DNA of 64,000 bases from Gloeocapsa sp. UFS-A4-WI-NPMV-4B04 (lineage in GTDB: Bacteria; Cyanobacteriota; Cyanobacteriia; Cyanobacteriales; Chroococcidiopsidaceae): positions 3,109-67,108 of the forward strand of contig JAHHHE010000003.1 in NCBI GenBank assembly GCA_019359535.1, read 5' to 3'. Each line of letters starts with the position of its first letter. The first letter of the stretch is position 1. Shown one piece after another: positions 12,144 to 56,897 of the stretch. The position numbers were made by a program, and so were the translations under genes. Below the pieces are notes generated by a model. The model saw nothing but the letters and a program-made list of their open reading frames with translations, did no database searches and was not told where the DNA came from.

Positions 12144-12368
12144 TTGTCTAAACAAGATTTAATTGAAATGGAAGGGACTGTAACAGAGTCTCTTCCTAAT
12201 GCTATGTTTCGCGTGGATCTAGACAACGGCTTTAATGTTCTAGCTCATATCTCCGGTAAGATTCGGCGTAATTACATCAAAATTTTACCTGGCGATCGCG
12301 TCAAAGTAGAACTGACTCCTTACGACTTAACAAAAGGCAGAATTACTTATCGCCTGCGTAAAAAGTAA
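12144..12368 (+). CDS. infA: Translation initiation factor IF-1
   Basis: TTG start. The S1-like translation contains [16 protein letters not shown]. Confidence 0.95.
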
Positions 12369-12479
12369 GTATTGGTGCATTTTCAAATTATAGATATCAT
12401 TTTATATCTTTAAATATAAATATTTGTGCTATAGCCGCAAAAATGGTAAAATATTAAGTTTGGAATGATTTGAAACAGA

Positions 12480-19725: not shown

Positions 19726-22074
19726 CTACCTAACCGTTTGCACAGGTTTCCAACTATTCAGGGAATCTCGCATTGAAGCCAACTCACTTAAATATTCATT
19801 TAGTTGTGCCTTTTTCTCCTCAAGTATTGCACGAATCTGATCTGTTTCTGCTTCTCGCGTTTCCCGTTCTTTTAGCAAACTATCAAACTCATCTTGAAAC
19901 CTTTTTATATAGTCATTAATTTGTTTCTCTGCATTTTTGAAATCATCTGAAACTTGTTTTTCAATGACTCGCTGTAAAAGTTCTTTGTTTCTAGATATTT
20001 GCTTATCTATATTAAGTTTGATTGCCTCTGATGTTTTGCGTAAATCAACTTCGTAGATGGAACGCTGCTCCTGAACTGGCACATCAACATAATAGACTTG
20101 ATCAGAATCACAGCAACGACTTCTTGTTCTTTTACCTTTGTGTGACCTTGTAAACACTTGTTGTTGATATTGAATTCGGGCATCAATTCCTGGAAAATCA
20201 AAACTAGGAAACTGAATTGGGTTAATATTCAGTTCAACTTGCAAAGCTTCTCCAAGATAGTTAGACAATTCGTCTGATATTTGTTGGATATCTTCTTGAA
20301 TTTTTTGGACTAACTCTTCTCGAATGCGTGTACCCTCTCTTACCAGACTATCTTGTGTGTCTATCCACCAACTTTGAATGTGAGGAGCGCAAAAATCATT
20401 TATGGTGCGTCCAATTTTTTCAGCCTCTTTCCGAGTCTTAACCCTAATTATGTATGGATCTAAGTTTTCATCTTGCTCAGGCTCAGGGTTGCTAAATGGT
20501 TCTGGTGTAGCACTAAGTAAAGCATCCATCAGAGATGATGCTATTTTGAAAGATTCTGCTAAAGCTTTGCCTACAATAGGAATAAGCTCCAACAAATTTG
20601 CGCCTATACCCCCAAACATTGTCCATAGATTAAATTCATTATTGTTATTACTGACAACTTCTATAGGTTTTTGCTTAACTTTAGGCTTCCGATGCTTAGA
20701 AGCTCTTGATTCTGCAATTTGAGTAATTTCATCCTCTATTTTAGTTTTAGCACCTTCAGCAAAAGCACTAATTCCTCCGCTAAATCCTTTAATAAGTGTT
20801 TGTTTTTGTTCCTCTACAGAAGTTTTTAGATTGTTAACTTTCTTTTGGGCAGACTCAGAACGTATTTTATACTCATCTACTTTCTGTTTGAGTGTTTCGA
20901 TTTCTATTTCCCACCCGCTTAATCGTGTGTTGAGGGTATCCTCAATCGCTTTTGCCGCCTTACTCATTTTTGCCAAAACATCACTTAAAAGATTCCAGCC
21001 GGAATTATGAATAATGGCTTGAATCACTGTATTTTCAATAGTGATAGTCCCGCTATCTTCTAAAGCTTGTGGTGCAATTATTTTAGGTGCAGGTGTTATT
21101 TGATTGCCTTGCTCATCTTCCTTAGCATATTTAGCACTAAAGAACCTTTTAAAGTCTTTAATTTGGCTTTCATCTGCTATACCTTGCTTGATTAGTTTTG
21201 CCAAAAGTCCTTGTCTAGCACTTGCTGGATAGATAATTGGATTCACAAAACCGAAATTAACTAACTCTTGTTGCAGACTTTTTATTACGTCATCAATATC
21301 TTGATCTTTGTCTGCTTTCTGATCTACTTTATTAAGAATAAAGTAAATTTTTCCTGTATTTTGCTTCAGAAAGTCACCACGATTTTCGGTCAATTCTCTA
21401 ATAAAAACGGAAAAAACGTTATCTCTGTAAGAAACATAATTTAGAACGAATACAATTGCATTGCAGGTTCGTAGCGCCTCTAGTGCAGTTCTCTTTAAAG
21501 CTGTTGTGTCAAAATTGGCAGACTCCCACTCGTTTGGGCCGGGGGTATCAACTAATGTGAAGCCATTTAGAGATGAGAGCGTGCTGATAGCTTCAATAGG
21601 ATGTTCTAACTCAAAGCGTATAGTATTGTCAGGATTGGCGTTAGCCCGAATATAATGAGTATGGTCTAGAAATTTTTGGCGAATCTCTCCAGCGTCACCC
21701 TCAGCAACTACAACGGCTCGTCTTTGCCCCTCTCGATACTCCAAAAGCCGGGGTTTTTGCCCAGCTTCAATGTGTCGGACATCGGTACGGCAGACTGTAC
21801 AAGATTTTACTTCACTCGGTAAAATATCTGCACCAATTAGAGCATTGAGGAAGGTGCTTTTACCTGCTTTCATAGCTGCAATGACAGCAACTTGATACTT
21901 TTGCTCCTGCAATGCTTTAAGAGCGTTGTTTAGATCGTCCTCAATACTGTGTAGTCCTTGGCTGTCGTTTCCTTCACTACGGCGACCTTCTCCAATTTCA
22001 TGAAGATACTGTACAAGTCGTATGCCAGTGCTGTAGATGCTATCGTGTGCTGCTTGGAACTGTTCGGATGACAT
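19726..22074 (-). CDS. Dynamin-family large GTPase (bacterial dynamin-like protein)
   Basis: GTPase motifs are G1 AMKAGKST, G3 DTPGP and G4 LNKVD. A hydrophobic paddle-like segment reads LWTMFGGIGANLLELIPIVGKAL. The C-terminal half is long and helical or coiled-coil. Confidence 0.8.
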   Translation of the reverse strand: MSSEQFQAAHDSIYSTGIRLVQYLHEIGEGRRSEGNDSQGLHSIEDDLNNALKALQEQKYQVAVIAAMKAGKSTFLNALIGADILPSEVKSCTVCRTDVRHIEAGQKPRLLEYREGQRRAVVVAEGDAGEIRQKFLDHTHYIRANANPDNTIRFELEHPIEAISTLSSLNGFTLVDTPGPNEWESANFDTTALKRTALEALRTCNAIVFVLNYVSYRDNVFSVFIRELTENRGDFLKQNTGKIYFILNKVDQKADKDQDIDDVIKSLQQELVNFGFVNPIIYPASARQGLLAKLIKQGIADESQIKDFKRFFSAKYAKEDEQGNQITPAPKIIAPQALEDSGTITIENTVIQAIIHNSGWNLLSDVLAKMSKAAKAIEDTLNTRLSGWEIEIETLKQKVDEYKIRSESAQKKVNNLKTSVEEQKQTLIKGFSGGISAFAEGAKTKIEDEITQIAESRASKHRKPKVKQKPIEVVSNNNNEFNLWTMFGGIGANLLELIPIVGKALAESFKIASSLMDALLSATPEPFSNPEPEQDENLDPYIIRVKTRKEAEKIGRTINDFCAPHIQSWWIDTQDSLVREGTRIREELVQKIQEDIQQISDELSNYLGEALQVELNINPIQFPSFDFPGIDARIQYQQQVFTRSHKGKRTRSRCCDSDQVYYVDVPVQEQRSIYEVDLRKTSEAIKLNIDKQISRNKELLQRVIEKQVSDDFKNAEKQINDYIKRFQDEFDSLLKERETREAETDQIRAILEEKKAQLNEYLSELASMRDSLNSWKPVQTVR

Positions 22075-33014: not shown

Positions 33015-35129
33015 TTATGTATCAACAGGTATTGTTGGAGGTGTGGAACCAACTTCTTCTATACTCCAATCTGATTCAGAGATACCCACTGCTGTTAAAA
33101 GACGACGACAAAAACTTACGTGACCTTTTGCCGAATTATTTTGAAGAACCCAAATACCATTTGATAATTGATACCAGTGTTTAGGATACCTTTTACCCTC
33201 AATATTATCGTATAAATAAGTTCCTAATATCTGTCGTGCTTTTTCAAAATATTGTGGACGATTTTTTATTACCCACTCCGTTGTTAATTTCATTAATTGC
33301 AGCCATGTTTTGTCTGGTACAACAATTGTTTCGCCACAAATTGTAACTACCTTTGGTATTCCATATGATTTGGTGTCTATTAGTGGAGGTTCTCCAATAG
33401 CAGACCAAATCTCTAAAAACTTTTCGGTTAGAAAATTAGCACGTTCTATAATAGACTCTTCATTCCATTGCTCAATATTTTGAGAAAAATATTCATTGTT
33501 GAGCTTTAAAGCATGATTCGCTAAAATCTCCTTTTTTGTTAAAAATGGTGCATTAGAAAGAGCTGAGTTCCACTCTTGGGTAACTAAAGTTAAATTTCCA
33601 AGAGTATGTAAATAACTTTGATATGTTTGTTCTAGTTTGTCTCCTAGTAAAGTTTTCCAATCTTCACTAGGTGTTTGCGGTAATATATGCTCAATAGTTG
33701 GCTCATTATCAAGAACACCAAATCCACCTGTACCTTTTGAAATATGACGATTAATCGTTTCTAAAATTAAACATAGTTTTTGCCTACTAGGATTACCATA
33801 TAATTTAGCTGTTTGAATAGCTTGTTTAATGCTGCGGTCTGGTGGATAACCTTTAGTCAATAAAACTTTTGTCAGCGCTTCCTTAAAAGGTAGCTCATTG
33901 GTCATTTCAGTAGTAATGTCATGCCAAAAAGTTGGAAATATCTTATTTAAGTAATTAGTAGGCTCACTGCAAACAAAACGTCGCACTATGTAGTTTTCTA
34001 ATACCTTAAATAAATGTAGTAAATCATCAAAACTTATTTGTTTAGATTCATAAGCATCGTAAGCCATAAGTAAGAAAGGATAAGTTGTTTGAATATCTAA
34101 TGTATTGAGGCGTTTAAGAGCTTCTTTGATATCCTTGTTTTGCTCATTTTCTGGTCGCAGCAACTTGTCTTAATACTCAGCAAAACGACGCAAATTCGCT
34201 ATTTCTTCAATAAATGCCTGAGTAGTAAACTCTTTCTCAAGGCGATCGCGAAAACGAGCATATATATGTTCTTCACTGCAAAGCACCCTCGAACACATAG
34301 CCAAGTAATGGCGAATAAAAGCTGTTAATTCACCAAGACGTGACTTGCCAACTGTACGTTTTTCCTGAAGTAAATTTTCAATCTTTTCCCATTGAGTTGT
34401 AAAGACACTTGCTTGTTGTGCTACGGGTAGCTTCATCGCAATGTAATTACGTACTAAATCTGCCTGCGATAAGCTTTTACCTTTAGCATTCAAACTTTCA
34501 AATATTTTATAAGGACTCTCATCATGGCTAAGATTGATAAATACAACTTGAAAACAGTTGGACAATACAATGAAAAATTGCTCAGGTATTACCTCAGAAA
34601 TATCAATTTTTCGTTTTAGCTCTTTACTAGAATAAGCATGGGCGCTAGGTATATTAGATTCAGTAGTAGTGATAACTTCTCCTAAAATAACTTTGGTGTA
34701 TAAATCGCGATCGCCATATTTAGTAGTTGGTAAGAGCTTAAAATGTACGTTTCCATCCTCATCAGCATTAACGAGCATTCGTTGAATTCTTCTTGCCAGA
34801 CCTGGATGAGTCTCTTGTACAATGTCACGTAATGCACAAAATAAAAGCGAAATAGTTGTCAAACGCTGCTGACCATCTACAACTTTAAAAGCAGGAATTA
34901 CACCATTAATTGTTCCGTCATTGATAACAACTAATGAACCTAGAAAATGCTCTGGCTCTTTTTCTGGTTGATATTCTTCATAAATGGCAAGTGCATCATT
35001 GAGCAGCGTTTCCCAGTTACTTTTTCCCCAACTATATTCGCGTTGAAAGTGGGGCAAGACATAATGAATATCTCCACCACCACTAAAAACAGTTGATATT
35101 TTGAGACTATCTGCTTTCATTTCATCCAA
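33015..35129 (-). pseudogene. GmrSD-like DUF262 + DUF1524 (His-Me finger) enzyme split by an in-frame TAA at 34170..34172
   Basis: The N-terminal half carries FQREYSW and DGQQRLTT (DUF262). The C-terminal half carries TIEHILPQ...LGNLTLV...N (DUF1524). The junction reads ...RRFAEY*DKLLRPENEQ in a single frame. Confidence 0.75.
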
Positions 35130-47524: not shown

Positions 47525-47622
47525 AAAACTCCGTGCAGAAGGGACGAAGTTCAACTCAATTTTGCAATTTTAGTTGTATGTGGGTAAGTTTTAGCAGTTA
47601 TAGAGTTTAAATTAATAAAAAA

Positions 47623-50441
47623 ATTATTAATAATTGGAATTTAGTAGAAAAACTGCAATGCTTATTGAGAAGTTACGGTTTCAATCCCTAAAAGGGATTA
47701 TTGATAATTAAACTTGCTAACAATAGGGATTATTGATAATTAAAACTTTACGCCATTCAACAAAGTGTTTTTTGAATGCAGTTTCAATCCCTAAAAGGGA
47801 TTATTGATAATTAAAACGGTTTGTTAGCCAATTTCGCAGGTCAGCAGGACTAAGTTTCAATCCCTAAAAGGGATTATTGATAATTAAAACGTTAAGAATT
47901 TTAGAATTGTTCTTGGCAGTCTGCAAATCAACTGGGTTTCAATCCCTAAAAGGGATTATTGATAATTAAAACCTAGCTCAATTTGCTTTACCTGAGACGA
48001 AACTTGTTTCAATCCTTAAAAGGGATTATTAATAATTAAAACTTAAAACGCACTTGCACTGTTTTGCTCATTGCTTTGCTTAGTTTCAATCCCTAAAAGG
48101 GATTATTGATAATTGGAATTCCAGATATTTATAAGAGGCTTATCTTCTAACCCGTTAGTTTCAATCCCTAAAAGGGATTATTGATAATTGGAATTTCTAG
48201 GAGCATCAGTGATAGCTGATCCTGTTTTCGTTTCAATCCCTAAAAGGGATTATTGATAATTGGAATATCTTCTATTTTGGCTGGCTTGCCTACCCACATA
48301 TCAGTTTCAATCCTAAAAGGGATTATTGATAATTGGAATCAAAATCTGATACTTCAATGTCAACAGACCAATTTGTTTCAATCCCTAAAAGGGATTATTG
48401 ATAATTAGAATTAGACACTGCTTGTCCTTGAAAGCCCATATAATCGTTTCAATCCCTAAAAGGGATTATTGATAATTGGAATATGTCTCAGCCATCATTG
48501 AAGGACTTTGAGCTGCAAGGTTTCAATCCCTAAAAGGGATTATTGATAATTGGAATTGGAACTGGAGCTACAAGTAAGCCGTTCTGATCAGTTTCAATCC
48601 CTAAAAGGGATTATTGATAATTGGAATGGGTTGGTTCCAAACTATGACCGCGCCACAGACTGTTTCAATCCCTAAAAGGGATTATTGATAATTGGAATCA
48701 TTTTTTGGGTACGTTCCCGCAAAAATCGCTCTGTTTCAATCCCTAAAAGGGATTATTGATAATTGGAATTCGAGCGGAATATATTGAGGCTAGCTTATGA
48801 GCTTGTTTCAATCCCTAAAAGGGATTATTGATAATTGGAATCTGGTTACTACGATGCAAAATTCAAGACTAATACGATTCTTGTTTCAATCCCTAAAAGG
48901 GATTATTGATAATTGGCATATGGTGCTGGTTCTGTTCCGGTTGACTGGTTACGTTTCAATCCCTAAAAGGGATTATTGATAATTGGAATTTGGAGAAGGC
49001 AATTTCATCACATCCCGAACTAATTAAGTTTCAATCCCTAAAAGGGATTATTGATAATTGGAATCCAATACTGAGATTTCCTAAATCGGGCATTACCTTG
49101 TTTCAATCCCTAAAAGGGATTATTGATAATTGGAATTCTGAGAATTAGGGCGTTGTACCATCGCCAGTAACTTGTTTCAATCCCTAAAAGGGATTATTGA
49201 TAATTGGAATATTAGTAGCTAAAATGGAAAAATTTATCATTCAATTTGTTTCAATCCCTAAAAGGGATTATTGATAATTGGAATCCAATACTGCTAAACA
49301 TATTGCCAACGTTGCTTAAGTTTCAATCCCTAAAAGGGATTATTGATAATTGGAATTGCCACAGGTTTATTGCAAAGTTCAGAAGGCGATGTTTCAATCC
49401 CTAAAAGGGATTATTGATAATTGGAATCTTCATGAGCGAACGAGGAGCGCCAATCACTTCGATAGTTTCAATCCCTAAAAGGGATTATTGATAATTGGAA
49501 TCTGATTTTGCAAGCTCATCAATAGAAGATATTTGTTTCAATCCCTAAAAGGGATTATTGATAATTGGAATTTGGAATCTATGCGGTAGCTTTTGATACT
49601 TACATAGCGCTTTGTTTCAATCCCTAAAAGGGATTATTGATAATTGGAATCCGTATGCCCTGCGTATACACTCCCATCGACTTTTGTTTCAATCCCTAAA
49701 AGGGATTATTGATAATTGGAATTGATTTAGCTCCTGGTCTAATTCGTCTCTGTGTTTGTTTCAATCCCTAAAAGGGATTATTGATAATTGGAATTTAAAT
49801 AAGATGTACTTATTAGCCGCGCCCACAAATCGGTTTCAATCCCTAAAAGGGATTATTGATAATTGGAATTCAACAACAGCGCCAGGGGGTTGCAGTTCAA
49901 ATATGTTTCAATCCCTAAAAGGGATTATTGATAATTGGAATAATATGTCCGAGTCCATGCCGACCTGGGAATAAATAGTTTCAATCCCTAAAAGGGATTA
50001 TTCATAATTGGAATCTTAATCGCCTCTAGAGACGCTTGCATATTCGGGTTTCAATCCCTAAAAGGGATTATTGATAATTGGAATTTTGATTTGCAGTCCG
50101 ATAAAGATTGTTTTTCCAGTTTCAATCCCTAAAAGGGATTATTGATAATTGGAATCCTGATTTGATCAGCCAGTTAGAACCTGTATCTGTGTTTCAATCC
50201 CTAAAAGGGATTATTGATAATTGGAATTAGTCACACTAGAGAAAAAAACCGCAGTGTAATGTTTCAATCCCTAAAAGGGATTATTGATAATTGGAATTTT
50301 GTTCACTTAATATTAATGACCCTGTTTGTGGGTTTCAATCCCTAAAAGGGATTATTGATAATTGGAATTGAAAACTCCTGAAGAAAAAGCAGCCGAGCTT
50401 CGGCGTTTCAATCCCTAAAAGGGATTATTGATAATTGGAAT
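47623..50441 (-). CRISPR. CRISPR array with 38 full 37-nt repeats plus 2 partial repeats
   Basis: The plus-strand consensus is GTTTCAATCCCTAAAAGGGATTATTGATAATTGGAAT. The first full repeat is at 47678 and the last at 50405..50441. Spacers are 33-45 nt, mostly 33-38. An internal 7-bp hairpin is AATCCCT/AGGGATT. On the minus strand the repeat ends in ATTGAAAC, so transcription probably runs from the cas2 side. Partial repeats lie at 47623..47640 and 47726..47746. Confidence 0.98.
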
Positions 50442-50747
50442 AGCTGGAGAGCAAAAGACTTGTCATATTGAGTTTTCAAGGTACGTTTGCGCGGATTTGT
50501 AAAATTATAGCATTGTAGCCATTTGGCGCAGCAATAGAACATTTGTTTTTTAGCTGAAAGTAAGTCTTAGTAAGGTTTTCAAAAGTTGCGCGATCGCCTA
50601 TTCAGGACTAACAGCAGCTAAACCCTTATCCCACAAGGAACACAAGTTAAAATAAAGGTCTGCTGTAACAAACACCCACCTATCCGCGCCATCTTTCAAA
50701 GTAACTCAAAACAAGCGTTAAAAAACTTAGAAAACCTAATTGTAATT
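50442..50747 (-). promoter_or_regulatory. CRISPR leader, with a candidate -10 box
   Basis: A 306-nt non-coding stretch between cas2 and the newest repeat. The minus-strand TATAAT at 50504..50509 lies about 63 nt upstream of the first repeat. Confidence 0.4.
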
Positions 50748-51020
50748 TTAGGCAAAAAAGATAGTGTTATCTACAAGTTCTTCACCGCCGATACGTTCTA
50801 CTTTATCTTTACAGCAAGCACACAGGAAGTAAAAGCGAATACTGTCTTGCTCGGGTTTGATAATTTTACTCAAACGCGATCGCAACTTAGCATACTGAGT
50901 AGCTGTTAACTCGCATTCAAATAAACTGTACTGCATCCATTGATCATAAGATTTCAGAATTTTGTGTATTTTATTACGGCGGTTATCTTCTGGAATGTCG
51001 TAAGAAATGACAACGTTCAT
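50748..51020 (-). CDS. cas2: CRISPR-associated endoribonuclease Cas2
   Basis: A 90-aa protein starting MNVVISYDI...RRNKI, directly next to cas1 and the leader. Confidence 0.9.
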   Translation of the reverse strand: MNVVISYDIPEDNRRNKIHKILKSYDQWMQYSLFECELTATQYAKLRSRLSKIIKPEQDSIRFYFLCACCKDKVERIGGEELVDNTIFFA

Positions 51021-51051: not shown

Positions 51052-52068
51052 TTACTTCAAAACCAGTGGTGGATATTTATCAGTTTCACCCATCAGATAT
51101 TTCGCTAGCAATCGCGCTTGAATCTCAAATGCTTCTTGGTAAGTGCATTGTCTCCCCATAACTGGATGCTTGAACTTAGACTGCTTCTTTTGCTCATATA
51201 GTCTCAACAATATTTTTAGTGCTTCCTGAGTCAATGAAACTGCTCTGCTGACTGGTTCTGTAGTAAAATCAGCTGGTGTGAGCGATCGCTTGTTAATTGC
51301 ACTCAGTACCATCGCATCCACCACCAACGGTCGAAACTCCTCCATCAAGTCAAGTGCTAACCCTGGACGACCGTAACGCTGTAAATGCAGATATCCTAAA
51401 TACGGGTCAAAACCGACAATATTAACTGCTCCCTGGACATCATGACGCAGTAGCGCATAGCCAAAACTCAACAGCGCATTTACTGGATCTGTTGGTGGAC
51501 GGCGGTTTCTAGCTTTAAACTCAAAACCTTCCGCTCGAATCATCTGCTCAAATACACTAAAGGAACCCGCACTACCCGCACCTTCTAAGCCTCGCAGTGA
51601 ATCAATTGTGGTAGTTTTGTCTAACGGTGCGATCGCCTGTTCAATTCACGCGATTGCGGCTTGCAAATCAAGTTCTGAACTTTCTCGTTCTCGACGTAAT
51701 AAAGAATTGCGGTAGTTTTTTAATTTACCCCTAATAAAACCCCTAACTACGTGCAAAGCTTGTGCAGATTCTCCAGCTGCTTGCCATTGAGCAGAACGTA
51801 CAAATATATTCTTAGTTAATTCTGGTTCTAATCTGCCTAAATATCGCCCAGTACCTGTAAGAAAACTTAGGGGAATATTGCGTTGTAAAAGTTCTGTGCT
51901 CGCACTTGGTGAAACAGTAGCTCGTCCTAATACTACAACGCCATCAATTTTAATCAAAGGTACATCTAAAAGTGTTTCCTTTTGCGCTTTTACTTGCAAA
52001 CGTTCATCTGCTTTCCCGATATACGCATCTTCCTGAGTAATATAAACTGTTCCCATAATCATGACCAA
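51052..52068 (-). pseudogene. cas1: cas1 with an in-frame TGA at 51646..51648
   Basis: ORFs 51646..52068 and 51052..51543 share one frame. The read-through translation is ...LDLQAAIA*IEQAIAPLDKTTTIDSLRGLEGAGSAGSFSVFEQMIRAEGFEFKARNRRPPTDPVNALLSFGYALL. Confidence 0.85.
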
Positions 52069-52071
52069 AAA

Positions 52072-52665
52072 TTATTTTATTTCCTGATAACGTTTAACTT
52101 TATCTACTGCTTGGGGTAAACACTGTTGATAAAGACTGCATCCCCGACAGCGTTGTGTATAGATTGCTGGCGGTATTTTTCCACTTTGCTGTATATTTTG
52201 GATAGCTTGAATAGTTGCGATCGCTGTTACTCTCAGTTCAGCAGATATATTAACTAATTGACGTTGATGAGATTGAGCATAATAAACATAGCCTTGAGTT
52301 ATTTTTTGCCCTATCATTTCCTCTAAACAAAGAGCTTGAGCGCAGACTTGTAACTCATCATTATCCCATTCTCTTTTATGACCGCGTTTGTATTCAATTG
52401 GATACCAATTACCATCAACTTCTTCAATTAAATCAGCTTTGCCGATTAATTTGTATTGCTCTGATTTCAACCAAACGGCTCTAACTTGCCAGGTATCTTC
52501 TCGGTGTCCTTCTCCTAAAGTGTGAACGCGATCGTGCAAGCTTGTACCTTCAATCGTGTACTGGTTATCTAGAAACTCGCCAGCACAAAACATCCGCCAG
52601 TAGCGATGTGAACAATAAGCATATTGATTCAATGCTGCAATAGGAATATAATCATGGTTATTCAT
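52072..52665 (-). CDS. cas4: CRISPR-associated exonuclease Cas4
   Basis: An N-terminal Cys plus a C-terminal CRGCSLYQQC cluster, and a RecB-like core (DLIEE...EYK). Confidence 0.88.
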   Translation of the reverse strand: MNNHDYIPIAALNQYAYCSHRYWRMFCAGEFLDNQYTIEGTSLHDRVHTLGEGHREDTWQVRAVWLKSEQYKLIGKADLIEEVDGNWYPIEYKRGHKREWDNDELQVCAQALCLEEMIGQKITQGYVYYAQSHQRQLVNISAELRVTAIATIQAIQNIQQSGKIPPAIYTQRCRGCSLYQQCLPQAVDKVKRYQEIK

Positions 52666-52743: not shown

Positions 52744-53568
52744 TTATTTTGCAGAACTTTTTAAACGTCGTACTATACCCATACCCATAGGCGTTTTTCG
52801 CCCTATACCACTAAATAAAGCAAAGTTTGATAAAGCATTAATTTGTTTAATTGTCAATGGTTGAGCATCTCCTAAAATGCGATAACTAATATTACCAACA
52901 CAACCAATAAATTTACTACGTGAATCAGCAATTATTTCTGTACGAATATCAAAATAACTAGGAAAGATTACTTGTATTAAGTCTGAAGATAATTCAATAT
53001 TGCTGTATTTATTCCAACGATTAATCAGACTATTAAAAACACAGTCTCTAGTTGGTAAAGCTGAGTCATACTCTTGTTGACGGAATGCAGTCGGAGTACA
53101 AAAACTTAAATTAATTTGGCGTTCAGTCTCTGAGGCTTGCTCATACAATTATTTATAAGTACAAAAATTTGCCCAAGGCTGAGTTGATTGCGGAGTACCT
53201 AAAATGCTGATAATTTTTAAATTCGCAGGGCCAAGATGCCAAGGATGGGAGGGATTTAGGTTAAGCCAAAGTTGAGTAAGGTTGCTGAATAAGGCATCAT
53301 CTAACAGGGAAATTCGCAACCAACAAGGTGTACCCGCTTCAATTACTTGTTTGTGTTCCCATTGTAGCCTGTAGTTACTTGTTGCAGATACTTGTAGAGG
53401 ACTGAGGGTAAAGGCTTTTTCTGTTTTTTGTGCGTGGAGGCGATCGCCTAATGTTTTATCAACAGAACTGACTAAAGTTAGAAACAGTGCGTGTATATGT
53501 TTACCGCTCAGGTAGCCAGATGGAATTGGGGACTGGGGGAGGAGGTTGAGGACTAAGCTATGAGGCAT
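52744..53568 (-). pseudogene. cas6: cas6 with an in-frame TAA at 53149..53151
   Basis: ORFs 53149..53568 and 52744..53148 are contiguous in one frame (...NFCTYK*LYEQASETERQ...). The C-terminal Gly-rich loop GIGRKTPMGMG is present. Confidence 0.8.
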
Positions 53569-53604
53569 ATTTAAGGTTAATAAATTTTGTTTATTAACAA
53601 ACTT

Positions 53605-55695
53605 TTATTCTAGAGAAGAAGGTGTTTTGGCTAATGACTTAGTGTAGGTAATAATTGCTTTGCGATTGCCTTCTGAATACAGCAGTTTTTCATCAGCGCT
53701 ATTAGTTGTTAGCTTGGTAAAAATTTTGGGAAGGTTGACAAAACCTAAGCTTTCTTCATATTGATATTCTTCAAGTTCAGCATCATAAATTACATTTTCG
53801 TTAGCTGGGTAAATTTTTACAATAATTTCCTTGTTATATGCGGAACCCCATTCTAATGAAGGTTGCATATTCCATCTAGTATTCTCTTGGCCGTATTTTC
53901 TTTGATAGACATGGGTATTAGCATACTTTATCCCACTACAAAGCCTATCTATAGGAACCGAAATACTATGGACTTGCTCACCATGAAACTCTAACTTAAC
54001 TGAAGGAGTCCAACTTCTAGTAGGAATTAAACCTTGCTTATGCAAATGATGACAAGTTCTATTAGCTTGATATACATATTCATGCAGCATAGAGAAAAGT
54101 TCAACTACTCGATAATCATCTACCTGTTGAGAACGAGAGATCCATTGTTGAATCTTTTGAGTTTTGAATTGTTTTAAATTTCGTAGCGTGTTTTTATATT
54201 TCTCCCATCCTGTGCTATCCAGACTATTAGCAAAATCTGGAATTTCATTGCCGACTAAAATAACTTTAGCATTAGGAAAATTACCTTTGCGATTGCAACG
54301 TCCTACCCTTTGAATTAAGTTTTCTGGTGAACAAATTTGAGAAATAAATGTTTCACAGTTTAAGTCACAGCCTACTTCAATAGCACTAGTAGTTATTAAA
54401 ATGTATGGTTGATTACCAGCATCCCTTTGTTGCAATCGTTTGTAGAGGTCAGTCCTAACTTGCTCGGCAATTCGACCATGATAAAGAAATATCTTTTCTA
54501 GTTTATCTTTAATATTTAAACCAAGTTGTTTTATTAGTTCTTCGTAGATAGCTGCTGCATCCGTGACTGTTTCAACTACACAAATAATCTTAGAATTTTG
54601 TTTTGCTTGCCACTCTTTGAGAATTATATTAGTAAACTCACTTTGGAAATAATTATGATTTTCTCGATCACATTTTACTTCGCTAATCCATTCAAAGCTT
54701 CTTTGATTAAGACAATCTTGCTTGAGGGTTTGCGCTTGAAATTCTTTAAGTTTGTCTGCTTTCTCAGGAATATCAACATAATCTATCAGTTCAAGATAGT
54801 TAAAACGATCGCTTAAATATTCTGGTGGCATTGTAGCAGTCATAAGAATGAGCGATCGCCCTGCTTCGTAAAGTGCTTTAACTAAGCTATGAAAATTGGT
54901 AAATGATATTTCATCGTATGTATGTGCTTCATCAAAACAAATTAAAGTTTTCTCTTGATTAATTCTTAAAGGAAAAATGAAAGATTTTTGTTTGTCACCG
55001 AAAGCAAAATATCGGTATAAAAATTTATCTATAGTCGTTAAAATTACATCTCCTTTGTACAGATGACGACGGGGATTAATATTAAGCTTAGAAGTGATAT
55101 CTTCACCGTCCCAATAAACCCATCGGTACATCTGCGCTCCTGTATCAACAACTAGCGATATTTCACGGCTTGGTTGTATTTTTGAGAGGGTTTTAAGATA
55201 CTTTTCAATTCTTTCTTTTTGGTCTTCTAATAAACTACGAGCAGGTAAAGGTAGAATTAAACGATACCCTTGTGCTAGTGCTGGAAATAAAACAGCTTCC
55301 AGTTTTCCCGAACCCGTCGGAGATTTCAGTAGAATTGCAGGATCATTTTTGACTATAGCCTCAAACATTTCTTGTTGCATGGGATTAGGAATAAATTGCT
55401 CTCCTCCTAATGCTTTGTATAAAGATTTGCAATCCAAATATTTAAACTTGTTATCTGATTGATATGCTTTTAAGGTAATTGATTTAGGCTCTGATTTTTC
55501 TGGATTACCTTGCTGAGATTGCCACCAATCTTTAGCAATTTTATCAATTAAATTACCTAATTTAGACTCTTGTTCTTTATCTATACAACCTTGCAACCTA
55601 TCTTTATCAGCTTGACTAAGCTCCATTGACCAATATTGAAAAGTTAGGGGAAGGGGAATAATATCTTCTTTAAGCACCATAGGCAATACAAGCAA
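53605..55695 (-). CDS. cas3: Cas3' helicase (superfamily 2 DEAH helicase with no HD nuclease domain)
   Basis: Helicase motifs are I SPTGSGK, II FDEAH, III TAT and VI QRVGRCNR. No HD motif occurs in the ~120-aa N-terminus. The start is ambiguous (55695, 55680 or 55626). Confidence 0.85.
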   Translation of the reverse strand: MLVLPMVLKEDIIPLPLTFQYWSMELSQADKDRLQGCIDKEQESKLGNLIDKIAKDWWQSQQGNPEKSEPKSITLKAYQSDNKFKYLDCKSLYKALGGEQFIPNPMQQEMFEAIVKNDPAILLKSPTGSGKLEAVLFPALAQGYRLILPLPARSLLEDQKERIEKYLKTLSKIQPSREISLVVDTGAQMYRWVYWDGEDITSKLNINPRRHLYKGDVILTTIDKFLYRYFAFGDKQKSFIFPLRINQEKTLICFDEAHTYDEISFTNFHSLVKALYEAGRSLILMTATMPPEYLSDRFNYLELIDYVDIPEKADKLKEFQAQTLKQDCLNQRSFEWISEVKCDRENHNYFQSEFTNIILKEWQAKQNSKIICVVETVTDAAAIYEELIKQLGLNIKDKLEKIFLYHGRIAEQVRTDLYKRLQQRDAGNQPYILITTSAIEVGCDLNCETFISQICSPENLIQRVGRCNRKGNFPNAKVILVGNEIPDFANSLDSTGWEKYKNTLRNLKQFKTQKIQQWISRSQQVDDYRVVELFSMLHEYVYQANRTCHHLHKQGLIPTRSWTPSVKLEFHGEQVHSISVPIDRLCSGIKYANTHVYQRKYGQENTRWNMQPSLEWGSAYNKEIIVKIYPANENVIYDAELEEYQYEESLGFVNLPKIFTKLTTNSADEKLLYSEGNRKAIITYTKSLAKTPSSLE

Positions 55696-55870
55696 GCACG
55701 TCTTCTCGCCCTATGCTTGGATAAGCCTCAAGCACTTCCTTAATTGTTGTTCCACCAGATAAGTAATCAAGACTTAGGGAAACCCAGATGCGATGTCCGC
55801 GAATACAAGGTTTGCCAAAACAAATATTCGGATCGATAGAAATTCTAGAAAGCAGATCGTCTCTAGCCAT
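55670..55870 (-). CDS. DUF433-like small DNA-binding protein
   Basis: The 66-aa translation (ISIDPNICFGKPCIRGHRIWV...) is characteristic of DUF433. Its 3' end overlaps the cas3' ORF. Confidence 0.65.
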   Translation of the reverse strand: MARDDLLSRISIDPNICFGKPCIRGHRIWVSLSLDYLSGGTTIKEVLEAYPSIGREDVLACIAYGA

Positions 55871-56033
55871 AGTGGTTGACCTCGTGGTAAGTTATCGTTT
55901 CTAATCTGGCTTTTTTAGTAGCTGCCCGACAAGTACAATTAAATTTTAGGGTTTCACGCTCCTGCTAATCTCTGATGTAGCTACACTAACTGTAAAAAAC
56001 AGATTATGTCAATAGTATAATTATAAAATTGTA

Positions 56034-56897
56034 ATGTCACGGAAAAAGGAGACAATTACACTTTCAATTCCGCCAGGAACTAAGGAGCAATTAGAGGCGA
56101 TCGCCCGTAGCCTAAACATCCTATGGGGTAAAGAACCCAGTATTTCAGGGTTAATAGTAGCGATCGCTCAACAAACCCTAGAAGTCGGAAAGCCTTTTAC
56201 CCTTGATTCCAACCAAGTTAATGCCTTACAACAGGCTATAAAAGCTTTAAATGATGCAGGTCGCATAGGAGAAGCGCAAAGTATACTTGCACTTTTAGTA
56301 GGAAGGGGAAACTTGGCGGCTCCCCTGCGTCAATCCCTTCTGAAACAAGCCAGTCAAATAACCCAAGGAGGGCGAATTCAGATTGAAGACCTAATTCAAA
56401 AACAACAGCCTTTCTATCTTCTCTACCAAAATTCCCAAGGTCAGGAACTAGAATACACTGTGCGTCATGCCGAAGTTCGCTTCTTCGAGAGACGTTTCTA
56501 CCTACTAATTTGGTGTGAAGAAACTCAAGATGTGGAAAATGACATTCCTGATTTGCCAGAACTTTGGCACAATCGCTGTTTGAGTTTTGACCGGATTAGA
56601 TCGGTTCTACCGATGAGTGGGGATTGGCGGGGTCAACTAGATTCCATTAAAGTACAATTACACTTTAAAAAATGGATGACAAAATCCTATGAACCTAAAA
56701 ATGATGATCTAGAAGACGAAATCGTTGGAGACGTGCGACAGGTAGTACGGCAAGTCGTAGATCCCTTCTGGTTAATTCGAGAAGTGTTGCGGTATGAAGA
56801 AAATTGTGTAGTTGTGTCACCAGACAGTGTACGCGATCGCATCAAACAAAAACTGCGATCGCTTTGCGGTGCATACGATATGACCATAGACGAATAA
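56034..56897 (+). CDS. CRISPR-locus transcription regulator (ribbon-helix-helix-like N-terminus plus WYL-type C-terminal domain)
   Basis: It is divergent from the cas operon, as the WYL repressor sll7009 is in the Synechocystis I-D locus. The N-terminus reads TITLSIPPGTKEQLEAIARSL, and the core reads RRFYLLIWCEE. Confidence 0.6.
   Translation: MSRKKETITLSIPPGTKEQLEAIARSLNILWGKEPSISGLIVAIAQQTLEVGKPFTLDSNQVNALQQAIKALNDAGRIGEAQSILALLVGRGNLAAPLRQSLLKQASQITQGGRIQIEDLIQKQQPFYLLYQNSQGQELEYTVRHAEVRFFERRFYLLIWCEETQDVENDIPDLPELWHNRCLSFDRIRSVLPMSGDWRGQLDSIKVQLHFKKWMTKSYEPKNDDLEDEIVGDVRQVVRQVVDPFWLIREVLRYEENCVVVSPDSVRDRIKQKLRSLCGAYDMTIDE

Follow-up and report, generated by a model that had tools for sequence, protein, structure and literature searches.

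The window analysed here, a 64,000-nucleotide stretch of contig JAHHHE010000003.1 from the cyanobacterium Gloeocapsa sp. UFS-A4-WI-NPMV-4B04 (GCA_019359535.1), contains a CRISPR-Cas locus, very probably what is left of a cyanobacterial type I system that was inactivated recently and no longer functions. The locus is considered a relic because it carries three independent lesions, namely a deletion, a stop codon in cas6 and a stop codon in cas1. A first-pass annotation of the same DNA had described a type I-D-like locus from which cas10d, csc2 and csc1 were missing, and had offered three explanations: use of the array by an effector encoded elsewhere in the genome, a minimal helicase-plus-adaptation module, or a recent deletion now decaying. 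The last of these is the one that the deletion junction, the two stops and the counts of non-synonymous and synonymous substitutions (N:S) uphold.

The locus was compared with two syntenic, intact relatives that encode Cas8b, Cas7b, Cas5b and Cas3 (L001 and L002, the latter from a Logan assembly), with more I-B-like loci having the same Cas6 family as the window (L003 and L005), and with canonical I-D loci, one from a close relative (L007) and others from further genomes (L010-L012). Two decayed I-D loci from JGI metagenome 3300041964 (L008 and L009) were also included, and P0001, a protein of 896 amino acids (aa), was the full-length Cas3 reference. Coordinates of all features of the locus are collected in Table 1.

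A deletion of about 4.8 kb removed the effector genes

The layout read by the first-pass annotation, with a WYL-type regulator divergent from a minus-strand run of DUF433, cas3', cas6, cas4, cas1, cas2 and leader, is real, and so is the array that follows it, with 38 repeats of 37 nt each. The effector genes are also absent as it had claimed: tblastn found no coding sequence for Cas10d, Csc2, Csc1, Cas8b, Cas7b, Cas5b or an HD domain in the 64 kb, the stretch that was searched and to which "absent" refers throughout, and the Cas10d of L007 in particular gave zero matches.

The position and the content of the loss differ from what had been proposed. In blastn alignments, L002 position 3200 lies opposite window position 55674 and L001 position 5476 opposite window position 55673, which places the junction between these two window nucleotides. 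From cas3 through the leader, the window is 94% identical to L001 and 91% identical to L002 at the DNA level, while the block formed by the regulator and DUF433 is less conserved (80% DNA identity to L002). Read on the minus strand, the sequence runs ...TTGCCTATGGTGC up to the junction and TTAAAGAAGAT... beyond it; the two sides share no repeat, and just a loose CTTGCC microhomology occurs some bases off. Relative to L002, about 4.8 kb are gone (L002 3201-~7978), comprising the last nine codons of DUF433, three entire genes and ~210 codons at the start of cas3. The DUF433 protein that is left in the window is 92% identical to residues 1-66 of its L002 counterpart.

The intact gene order in L002 is thioesterase and WCX-type regulator followed, divergently, by DUF433 (75 aa), proteins of 733, 298 and 274 aa, Cas3 (898 aa), Cas6, Cas4, Cas1 and Cas2, and L001 has the same genes upstream. 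Although no NCBIfam or Pfam model matched the relatives' versions of the three lost genes, the Cas8b model of PADLOC/CasFinder recognised the large-subunit gene with 1054 bits in L001 and 712 bits in L002, and the other two matched Cas7b (423 bits) and Cas5b (393 bits), the score against Cas7d being just 16.8 bits. These matches indicate that the ancestral effector was I-B-like, with an HD-helicase Cas3, rather than Cas10d-Csc2-Csc1. The relatives' Cas7b and Cas8b matched no PDB chain by sequence, and this lack of similarity to solved Cascade subunits suggests a distinct Cas8b/Cas7b family. As regards the relatives themselves, the Cas8b-type gene encodes 733 aa in L002 (3427-5628) and 822 aa in L001 (654-3122), and the match of the L002 product to the model falls into two stretches, which suggests another start or a lesion in L002. 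Between thioesterase and WCX, L002 also carries ~700 bp (1323-2023) with open reading frames (ORFs) of 77 and 57 aa that have no Pfam match; the window lacks this segment.

The first-pass annotation had placed the loss of cas10d, csc2 and csc1 in the 36 bp between cas3 and cas6. This is not where genes were lost, as L001 and L002, with their operons intact, carry the same 36-bp spacer at that place. The palindrome pointed out there, TTAATAAA-N5-TTTATTAA at 53577-53597, does exist; it is created by three window-specific substitutions relative to L001 and L002 and is no mark of a deletion. Both the gap and the palindrome were accordingly rejected as deletion scar or deletion site. Aligning the locus with intact relatives, the check suggested at the time, did define a junction, albeit at 55674/55673 and against relatives that are I-B-like.

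The Cas3 helicase is an N-terminally truncated protein

The 696-aa ORF annotated as Cas3' is, as judged from alignment, the C-terminal 686 residues of a Cas3 of ~896 aa that has lost its N-terminus. Its alignment with P0001 covers residues 204-896 of that protein, with 90% identity, and among the best 120 of 719 homologues recovered with this ORF, most are ~865-930 aa long. The helicase motifs of the remnant are intact. NCBI annotates the gene as a 691-aa Cas3' whose start codon, an ATG at 55680-55678, lies within DUF433-derived sequence.

Short relatives of this Cas3 are few (664-679 aa), and each is preceded by a separate gene of 211-230 aa that corresponds to the missing N-terminus; in L003 and L005, likewise, the N-terminal domain is a gene of its own beside the helicase. 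The window protein is the sole truncated member of its 90%-identity cluster, and the other listed homologues are either full length or divided, in which case an HD gene lies next to the helicase and the Cascade operon is complete. The lost N-terminus is probably an HD nuclease domain. Its invariant residues are H36, H74-D75 within an IHDxGKPQ motif, H104, H122-H123 and D166. Weak matches were obtained with the HD model of Pfam (E=0.004), with DUF3891 (24 bits, equal to the cut-off) and with the N-terminal ends of the Cas3 models of PADLOC.

The deletion ends 5-35 residues ahead of the natural split between HD and helicase seen in L003 and L005, and owing to this proximity the remnant passes for a native Cas3'. 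The absence of an HD domain had indeed been interpreted as a native trait of I-D systems; instead, it follows from the truncation by the deletion, and the window Cas3 is just 21% identical to the I-D Cas3' of L007. Against TIGR03158 it scored 66.7 bits, under the cut-off of 69.1, and its top PADLOC model is labelled Cas3d (199.6 bits).

Nonsense mutations in cas6 and cas1 and the timing of inactivation

In cas6, codon 140 has changed from CAA to TAA (53149-53151), and in cas1, codon 137 from CGA to TGA (51646-51648). Codon alignment with L002 and L007, which have CAA (Gln) and CGA (Arg) at the respective positions, confines both stops to the window lineage. Cas6 is thereby truncated at residue 139 of 274, its best 120 homologues being 269-310 aa long, and Cas1 at residue 136 of 334; with the integrase cut at that point, adaptation is impossible. 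NCBI assigns no protein accession to either gene, while the neighbouring genes carry consecutive accessions.

Lineage-specific substitutions were counted by three-taxon parsimony and compared by Fisher test. For cas6 and cas1 together, N:S was 19:36 in the window lineage versus 15:71 in the sister lineages (p=0.027), whereas cas4, cas2 and the cas3 remnant gave 22:32 versus 110:153 (p=1). Since relaxation is detectable in the two pseudogenes only, inactivation appears recent compared with the 6-9% DNA divergence from relatives.

As its relatives still show, the ancestral locus consisted of a WCX-type regulator and, in divergent orientation, DUF433, a Cas8b-type large subunit, Cas7b, Cas5b, Cas3 with HD and helicase parts, Cas6, Cas4, Cas1, Cas2, leader and array. 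A single illegitimate-recombination event between DUF433 codon 66 and cas3 codon 210 deleted ~4.8 kb, so that all Cascade backbone genes and the N-terminal part of Cas3 were lost, and independent C>T nonsense mutations, arising before or after the deletion, truncated Cas6 and Cas1. We infer that the locus no longer acquires spacers, cuts CRISPR RNA (crRNA) precursors or attacks targets in cis, and that the helicase part of cas3, cas4, cas2, the regulator and the mostly uniform array would be leftovers too young to have decayed.

The array records past activity and incipient decay

Rfam CRISPR-DR5 matched 37 of the 38 repeats on the minus strand. The repeat (...CCCTTTTAGGGATTGAAAC), which ends in ATTGAAAC, is predicted to fold into an 8-bp hairpin followed by GAAAC. 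Two types are present. Five repeats at the trailer end are of the ancestral type, GTTTTAATTATC...GGGATTGAAAC, with a GTTTT start; two of them have further changes, and the other three are identical to the repeat of L008 and L009. The GTTTT type is also found in the first repeat of L002 (partly read) and in the two repeats of L007, whose 3' ends deviate. A derived type, ATTCCAATTATC...GGGATTGAAAC, with an ATTCC start, makes up the 33 leader-proximal repeats. At the leader-repeat junction, the window reads CCAGCT/ATTCC and L002 and L007 read CCGGAC/GTTTT. A partial repeat lies inside a 66-nt "spacer" (47715-47780).

Newly made repeats are copies of the leader-proximal repeat. At least 32 spacers must therefore have been added after the change from GTTTT to ATTCC, from which it follows that the system was once active in this lineage. 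The first-pass annotation had counted 33 nearly identical repeats and taken them as a sign of recent activity or maintenance. All 33 do belong to one type; 29 are perfect and four carry single changes (48304-48339, 48375-48411, 48883-48919 and 49978-50014), one of which, a 1-nt deletion in the hairpin stem, weakens the predicted fold from -8.0 to -4.1 kcal/mol. With four of 33 repeats mutated and both Cas1 and Cas6 knocked out, this near-identity is no evidence of maintenance.

The spacers, which had been proposed as a lead to phage or plasmid targets, gave zero matches in the phage and plasmid collections searched. None occurs in the arrays of L007-L009 as well, and none targets the window.

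Kinship with type I-D and an exchange of effector cassettes

The resemblance to type I-D originates from the genes downstream of cas3. The module cas6-cas4-cas1-cas2 belongs to the I-D kind, with a Cas1d score of 442 bits (cut-off 385) and Cas6d, Cas4d and Cas2d as best PADLOC models, and it is this module that made the locus look like I-D. The more distant Cas6 homologues (72-78%) are located in I-D operons. The I-D assignment therefore stands for this module, for the regulator and for the repeat, and fails for the lost effector, which was of the Cas8b/Cas7b/Cas5b type. In the canonical I-D reference, CRISPR1 on pSYSA of Synechocystis PCC 6803, sll7009 is divergent from cas3'-cas10d-csc2-csc1-cas6-cas4-cas1-cas2 (PMC10212523). 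The window shares with this system the Cas6d, Cas4, Cas1d and Cas2 families, a divergent WYL-type regulator and a 37-nt repeat with the same ending, and departs from it in its ancestral effector and in having had HD on Cas3 instead of on the large subunit.

A close relative shows how the two architectures meet. The operon of L007 encodes Cas3' (702 aa), a protein of 1096 aa, Csc2, Csc1, Cas6, Cas4, Cas1 and Cas2, and its flanks, 92-95% identical to those of the window, have SpoU methylase and thioesterase genes at one end and TPR and AhpC genes at the opposite end. Window and L007 also share a block of 93% DNA identity that begins 13 nt upstream of cas6 and includes the leader. L002 and L007 have in common solely their flanks (94% identical) and the segment that starts 6 nt upstream of cas6 (93%). 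Between these, at one chromosomal site, lie cassettes of 8-9 kb (L002:1323-10074 and L007:936-9139, the window equivalent being 53581-56766): WCX, DUF433, Cas8b, Cas7b, Cas5b and an HD-helicase Cas3 in L002, and WCX, Cas3', Cas10d, Csc2 and Csc1 in L007. On this alignment, L002 and L007 differ by the swap of an effector-plus-regulator cassette on a shared Cas6/adaptation module. The regulator goes with the cassette: that of the window shares 72% identity with its L002 counterpart and 46% with that of L007. For I-D systems, it has been noted that effector modules are shuffled while the adaptation/cas6 module is conserved (PMC10212523), and "hybrid" loci were reported in 9% of cyanobacterial genomes (PMC11903412).

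Compared with the I-B-like loci L001 and L002, the window is alike in synteny, WCX type, DUF433 as first gene, the 36-bp spacer, leader and trailer repeats, and differs in lacking Cas8b, Cas7b, Cas5b and ~210 cas3 codons, in the cas6 and cas1 stops and in the ATTCC repeat start. Judged by these comparisons, it is a deletion derivative of a known I-B-like architecture and not a working member of it. The Cas3 family of this architecture includes proteins that NCBI names Cas3' in Nostoc, Calothrix, Microcoleus, Iningainema and Symplocastrum. With reference to the type I-B system of Synechocystis PCC 6714 (PMC11096372), the relatives' effector genes correspond to the CAS-I-B models of CasFinder and PADLOC, and they follow an I-B-like order, with the large subunit ahead of Cas7, Cas5 and Cas3, whereas their Cas7b and Cas8b are set apart by the lack of a PDB match mentioned above.

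The decayed loci L008 and L009 resemble the window in their repeat family and in an array and adaptation genes that outlast a destroyed effector. They were broken by insertion sequences, with fragmented csc genes, and the window by one clean deletion and two nonsense mutations. In L008 (2372-6992) and L009 (841-5980), Csc2 and Csc1 ORFs are fragmented and Cas6 has 211 aa, with IS630/DDE transposase insertions in L009; their arrays persist with 22 and 47 repeats, so that loss of the effector with the array kept recurs in this group. L007 has just two repeats (12273-12379, one spacer), both off consensus, which may represent a collapsed assembly or a near-empty array. Canonical I-D loci also hold accessory genes between cas3' and cas10d, such as a RAMA-domain gene (L010:4475-4819) and Polbeta/HepT nucleotidyltransferase-HEPN pairs (L011:3484-4079 and L012:3920-4804), and a 2OG-Fe(II) oxygenase gene lies ahead of cas6 in L011 (9394-10011).

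Type I-G was rejected: Cas3g reached 123.7 bits (cut-off 400), cas4g_cas1g 162 and 349 bits (cut-off 560), and cas4 and cas1 of the window are separate genes without a Cas4-Cas1 fusion. A transposon-associated system (CAST) was discarded likewise, as the 20 larger flanking ORFs scanned include no Tn7-type genes. In the scans of a genome-contig collection, close relatives of the window Cas3 ORF gave no confirmed locus and the exact window repeat had zero matches. The repeat core also had zero matches in a metagenome-contig collection, which lacks the L008 and L009 samples that do hold the repeat, and a Csc2 scan of that collection found 80 I-D loci, none attributable to the source culture.

Alternative explanations

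Several observations weigh against regarding the locus as dead. The leader, the operon promoter region and 29 of the 33 derived repeats look intact, and transcription may therefore continue. No relaxed constraint is apparent in the cas3 remnant, cas4 and cas2, which may be retained for some purpose, and with the in-frame ATG at the junction the remnant reads as an uninterrupted ORF of 691 aa, its extent like that of a natural stand-alone Cas3'. The assignment of the lost N-terminus to HD nucleases is based on motifs and sub-threshold profile matches, a profile search of the PDB with this domain having returned nothing usable. Finally, the window is a contig of a metagenome-assembled genome (MAG), known from its consensus letters alone.

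Part of this evidence would suit an orphaned array that is still in use, being transcribed from its leader, processed by a Cas6 acting in trans and loaded as crRNAs into a second effector of I-D or I-B-like type. Sister strains couple nearly the same cas6/leader/repeat module, at 93% DNA identity, to an I-D effector (L007) and to an I-B-like one (L002), so that both effectors seem to take crRNAs of this repeat family, and cyanobacteria often have more than one CRISPR-Cas type (PMC11903412). However, no second Cas6 from this MAG is named among the best 120 Cas6 homologues, a set that reaches down to ~65% identity, and neither tblastn with both effector sets nor the Pfam scan of the 20 larger flanking ORFs revealed another cas gene in the window. 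Four mutated internal repeats are also more than expected of a maintained array, and the spacers lack phage or plasmid matches. Such use in trans is consequently unlikely, and we give no better chance to its narrower form, in which the 37 spacers are read by a second system and the truncated Cas3 helicase is kept as a stand-alone Cas3'. A minimal helicase-plus-adaptation module of non-canonical function, its Cas3 helicase, Cas4 and Cas2 being kept by selection, would account for the freedom of these three genes from stops and frameshifts, for N:S counts not above those of the sister lineages and for the extent of the remnant, similar to that of natural stand-alone Cas3' genes. It is nonetheless the least likely of the explanations considered, given that Cas1 ends at its internal stop, that the architecture is unique among the listed homologues of this Cas3, and that both genes hit by the deletion are cut at arbitrary points.

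The deletion and the stops might also be MAG errors in a genome that in reality has the full operon. The source strain, from desert soil in Utah, is kept as a unialgal, non-axenic culture, sequenced deeply on Illumina (NovaSeq 2x150) and assembled with metaSPAdes (PMC8354539), and a short-read assembly from a non-axenic culture leaves room for such errors. Conversely, beyond the loose CTTGCC, the junction offers no shared repeat able to mislead a de Bruijn assembler, no detached effector fragment occurs in the window, and three independent lesions together with scattered repeat mutations would hardly arise by error at high Illumina coverage. An artefact of assembly or sequencing is thus highly improbable, and recent inactivation of a type I locus is the reading retained here.

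Features of the locus and other genes in the window

Positions in Table 1 refer to the 64-kb window. A scan for promoters and terminators stayed at chance level, with 17 found versus 19 expected. According to the Pfam scan, the larger flanking ORFs that it covered are housekeeping or other defence genes. On the minus strand at 33015-35129, a GmrSD_N gene (34170-35129) adjoins a GmrSD_C gene (33015-34163), which would form a split type IV restriction enzyme; this region has the lowest GC content of the window (38-39% vs ~44%). A 285-aa protein encoded at 62015-62872 matches Nmad3 (nucleotide modification associated domain 3) with 268 bits, and a 782-aa bacterial dynamin-like GTPase (19726-22074, minus strand) lies amid housekeeping genes (SecY, RF-1, iPGM).

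Table 1. Features of the CRISPR-Cas locus, listed by position in the window.
Feature	Position	Strand	Remarks
Degenerate terminal repeat relic, beyond trailer end	47605..47640	-	8 differences from consensus
CRISPR array, 38 repeats of 37 nt	47678..50441	-	Repeat analysis; Rfam CRISPR-DR5
Leader, 306 bp	50442..50747	-	Conserved with L002 and L007, within 91-93% identical blocks
cas2	50748..51020	-	Intact, 90 aa; TIGR01573 71.8 bits; PADLOC Cas2d 130 bits
cas1 pseudogene	51052..52056	-	Cas1d TIGR04093 442 bits on read-through
cas4	52072..52665	-	Intact, 197 aa; TIGR00372 165 bits; PADLOC Cas4d 292 bits
cas6 pseudogene	52744..53568	-	PADLOC Cas6d 492 bits on read-through
cas3-cas6 intergenic spacer	53569..53604	-	36 bp; length and sequence conserved in L001 and L002
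Cas3 helicase ORF, 696 aa	53605..55695	-	cas3-derived part 53605..55673, residues ~211-896 of full-length Cas3
Deletion junction	55673..55674	-	blastn against L001 and L002
DUF433 gene	55670..55870	-	First gene of the operon; 66 aa, down from 75 aa; PF04255 80 bits
Divergent promoter region	55871..56033	.	Conserved with L002 (sequence comparison)
WYL/WCX-type regulator	56034..56897	+	287 aa; divergent to operon

Implications

The locus calls for caution in annotation. NCBI treats the truncated protein as a normal Cas3', and it would be wrong to count loci of this kind among "minimal" or "helicase-only" systems. More notable than the window itself is the exchange of cassettes among its desert relatives, in which I-D and I-B-like effectors, each with its own regulator, occupy one site and which amounts to effector-module exchange at nearly the strain level. 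This exchange hints that one type of crRNA can serve both Cascade architectures.

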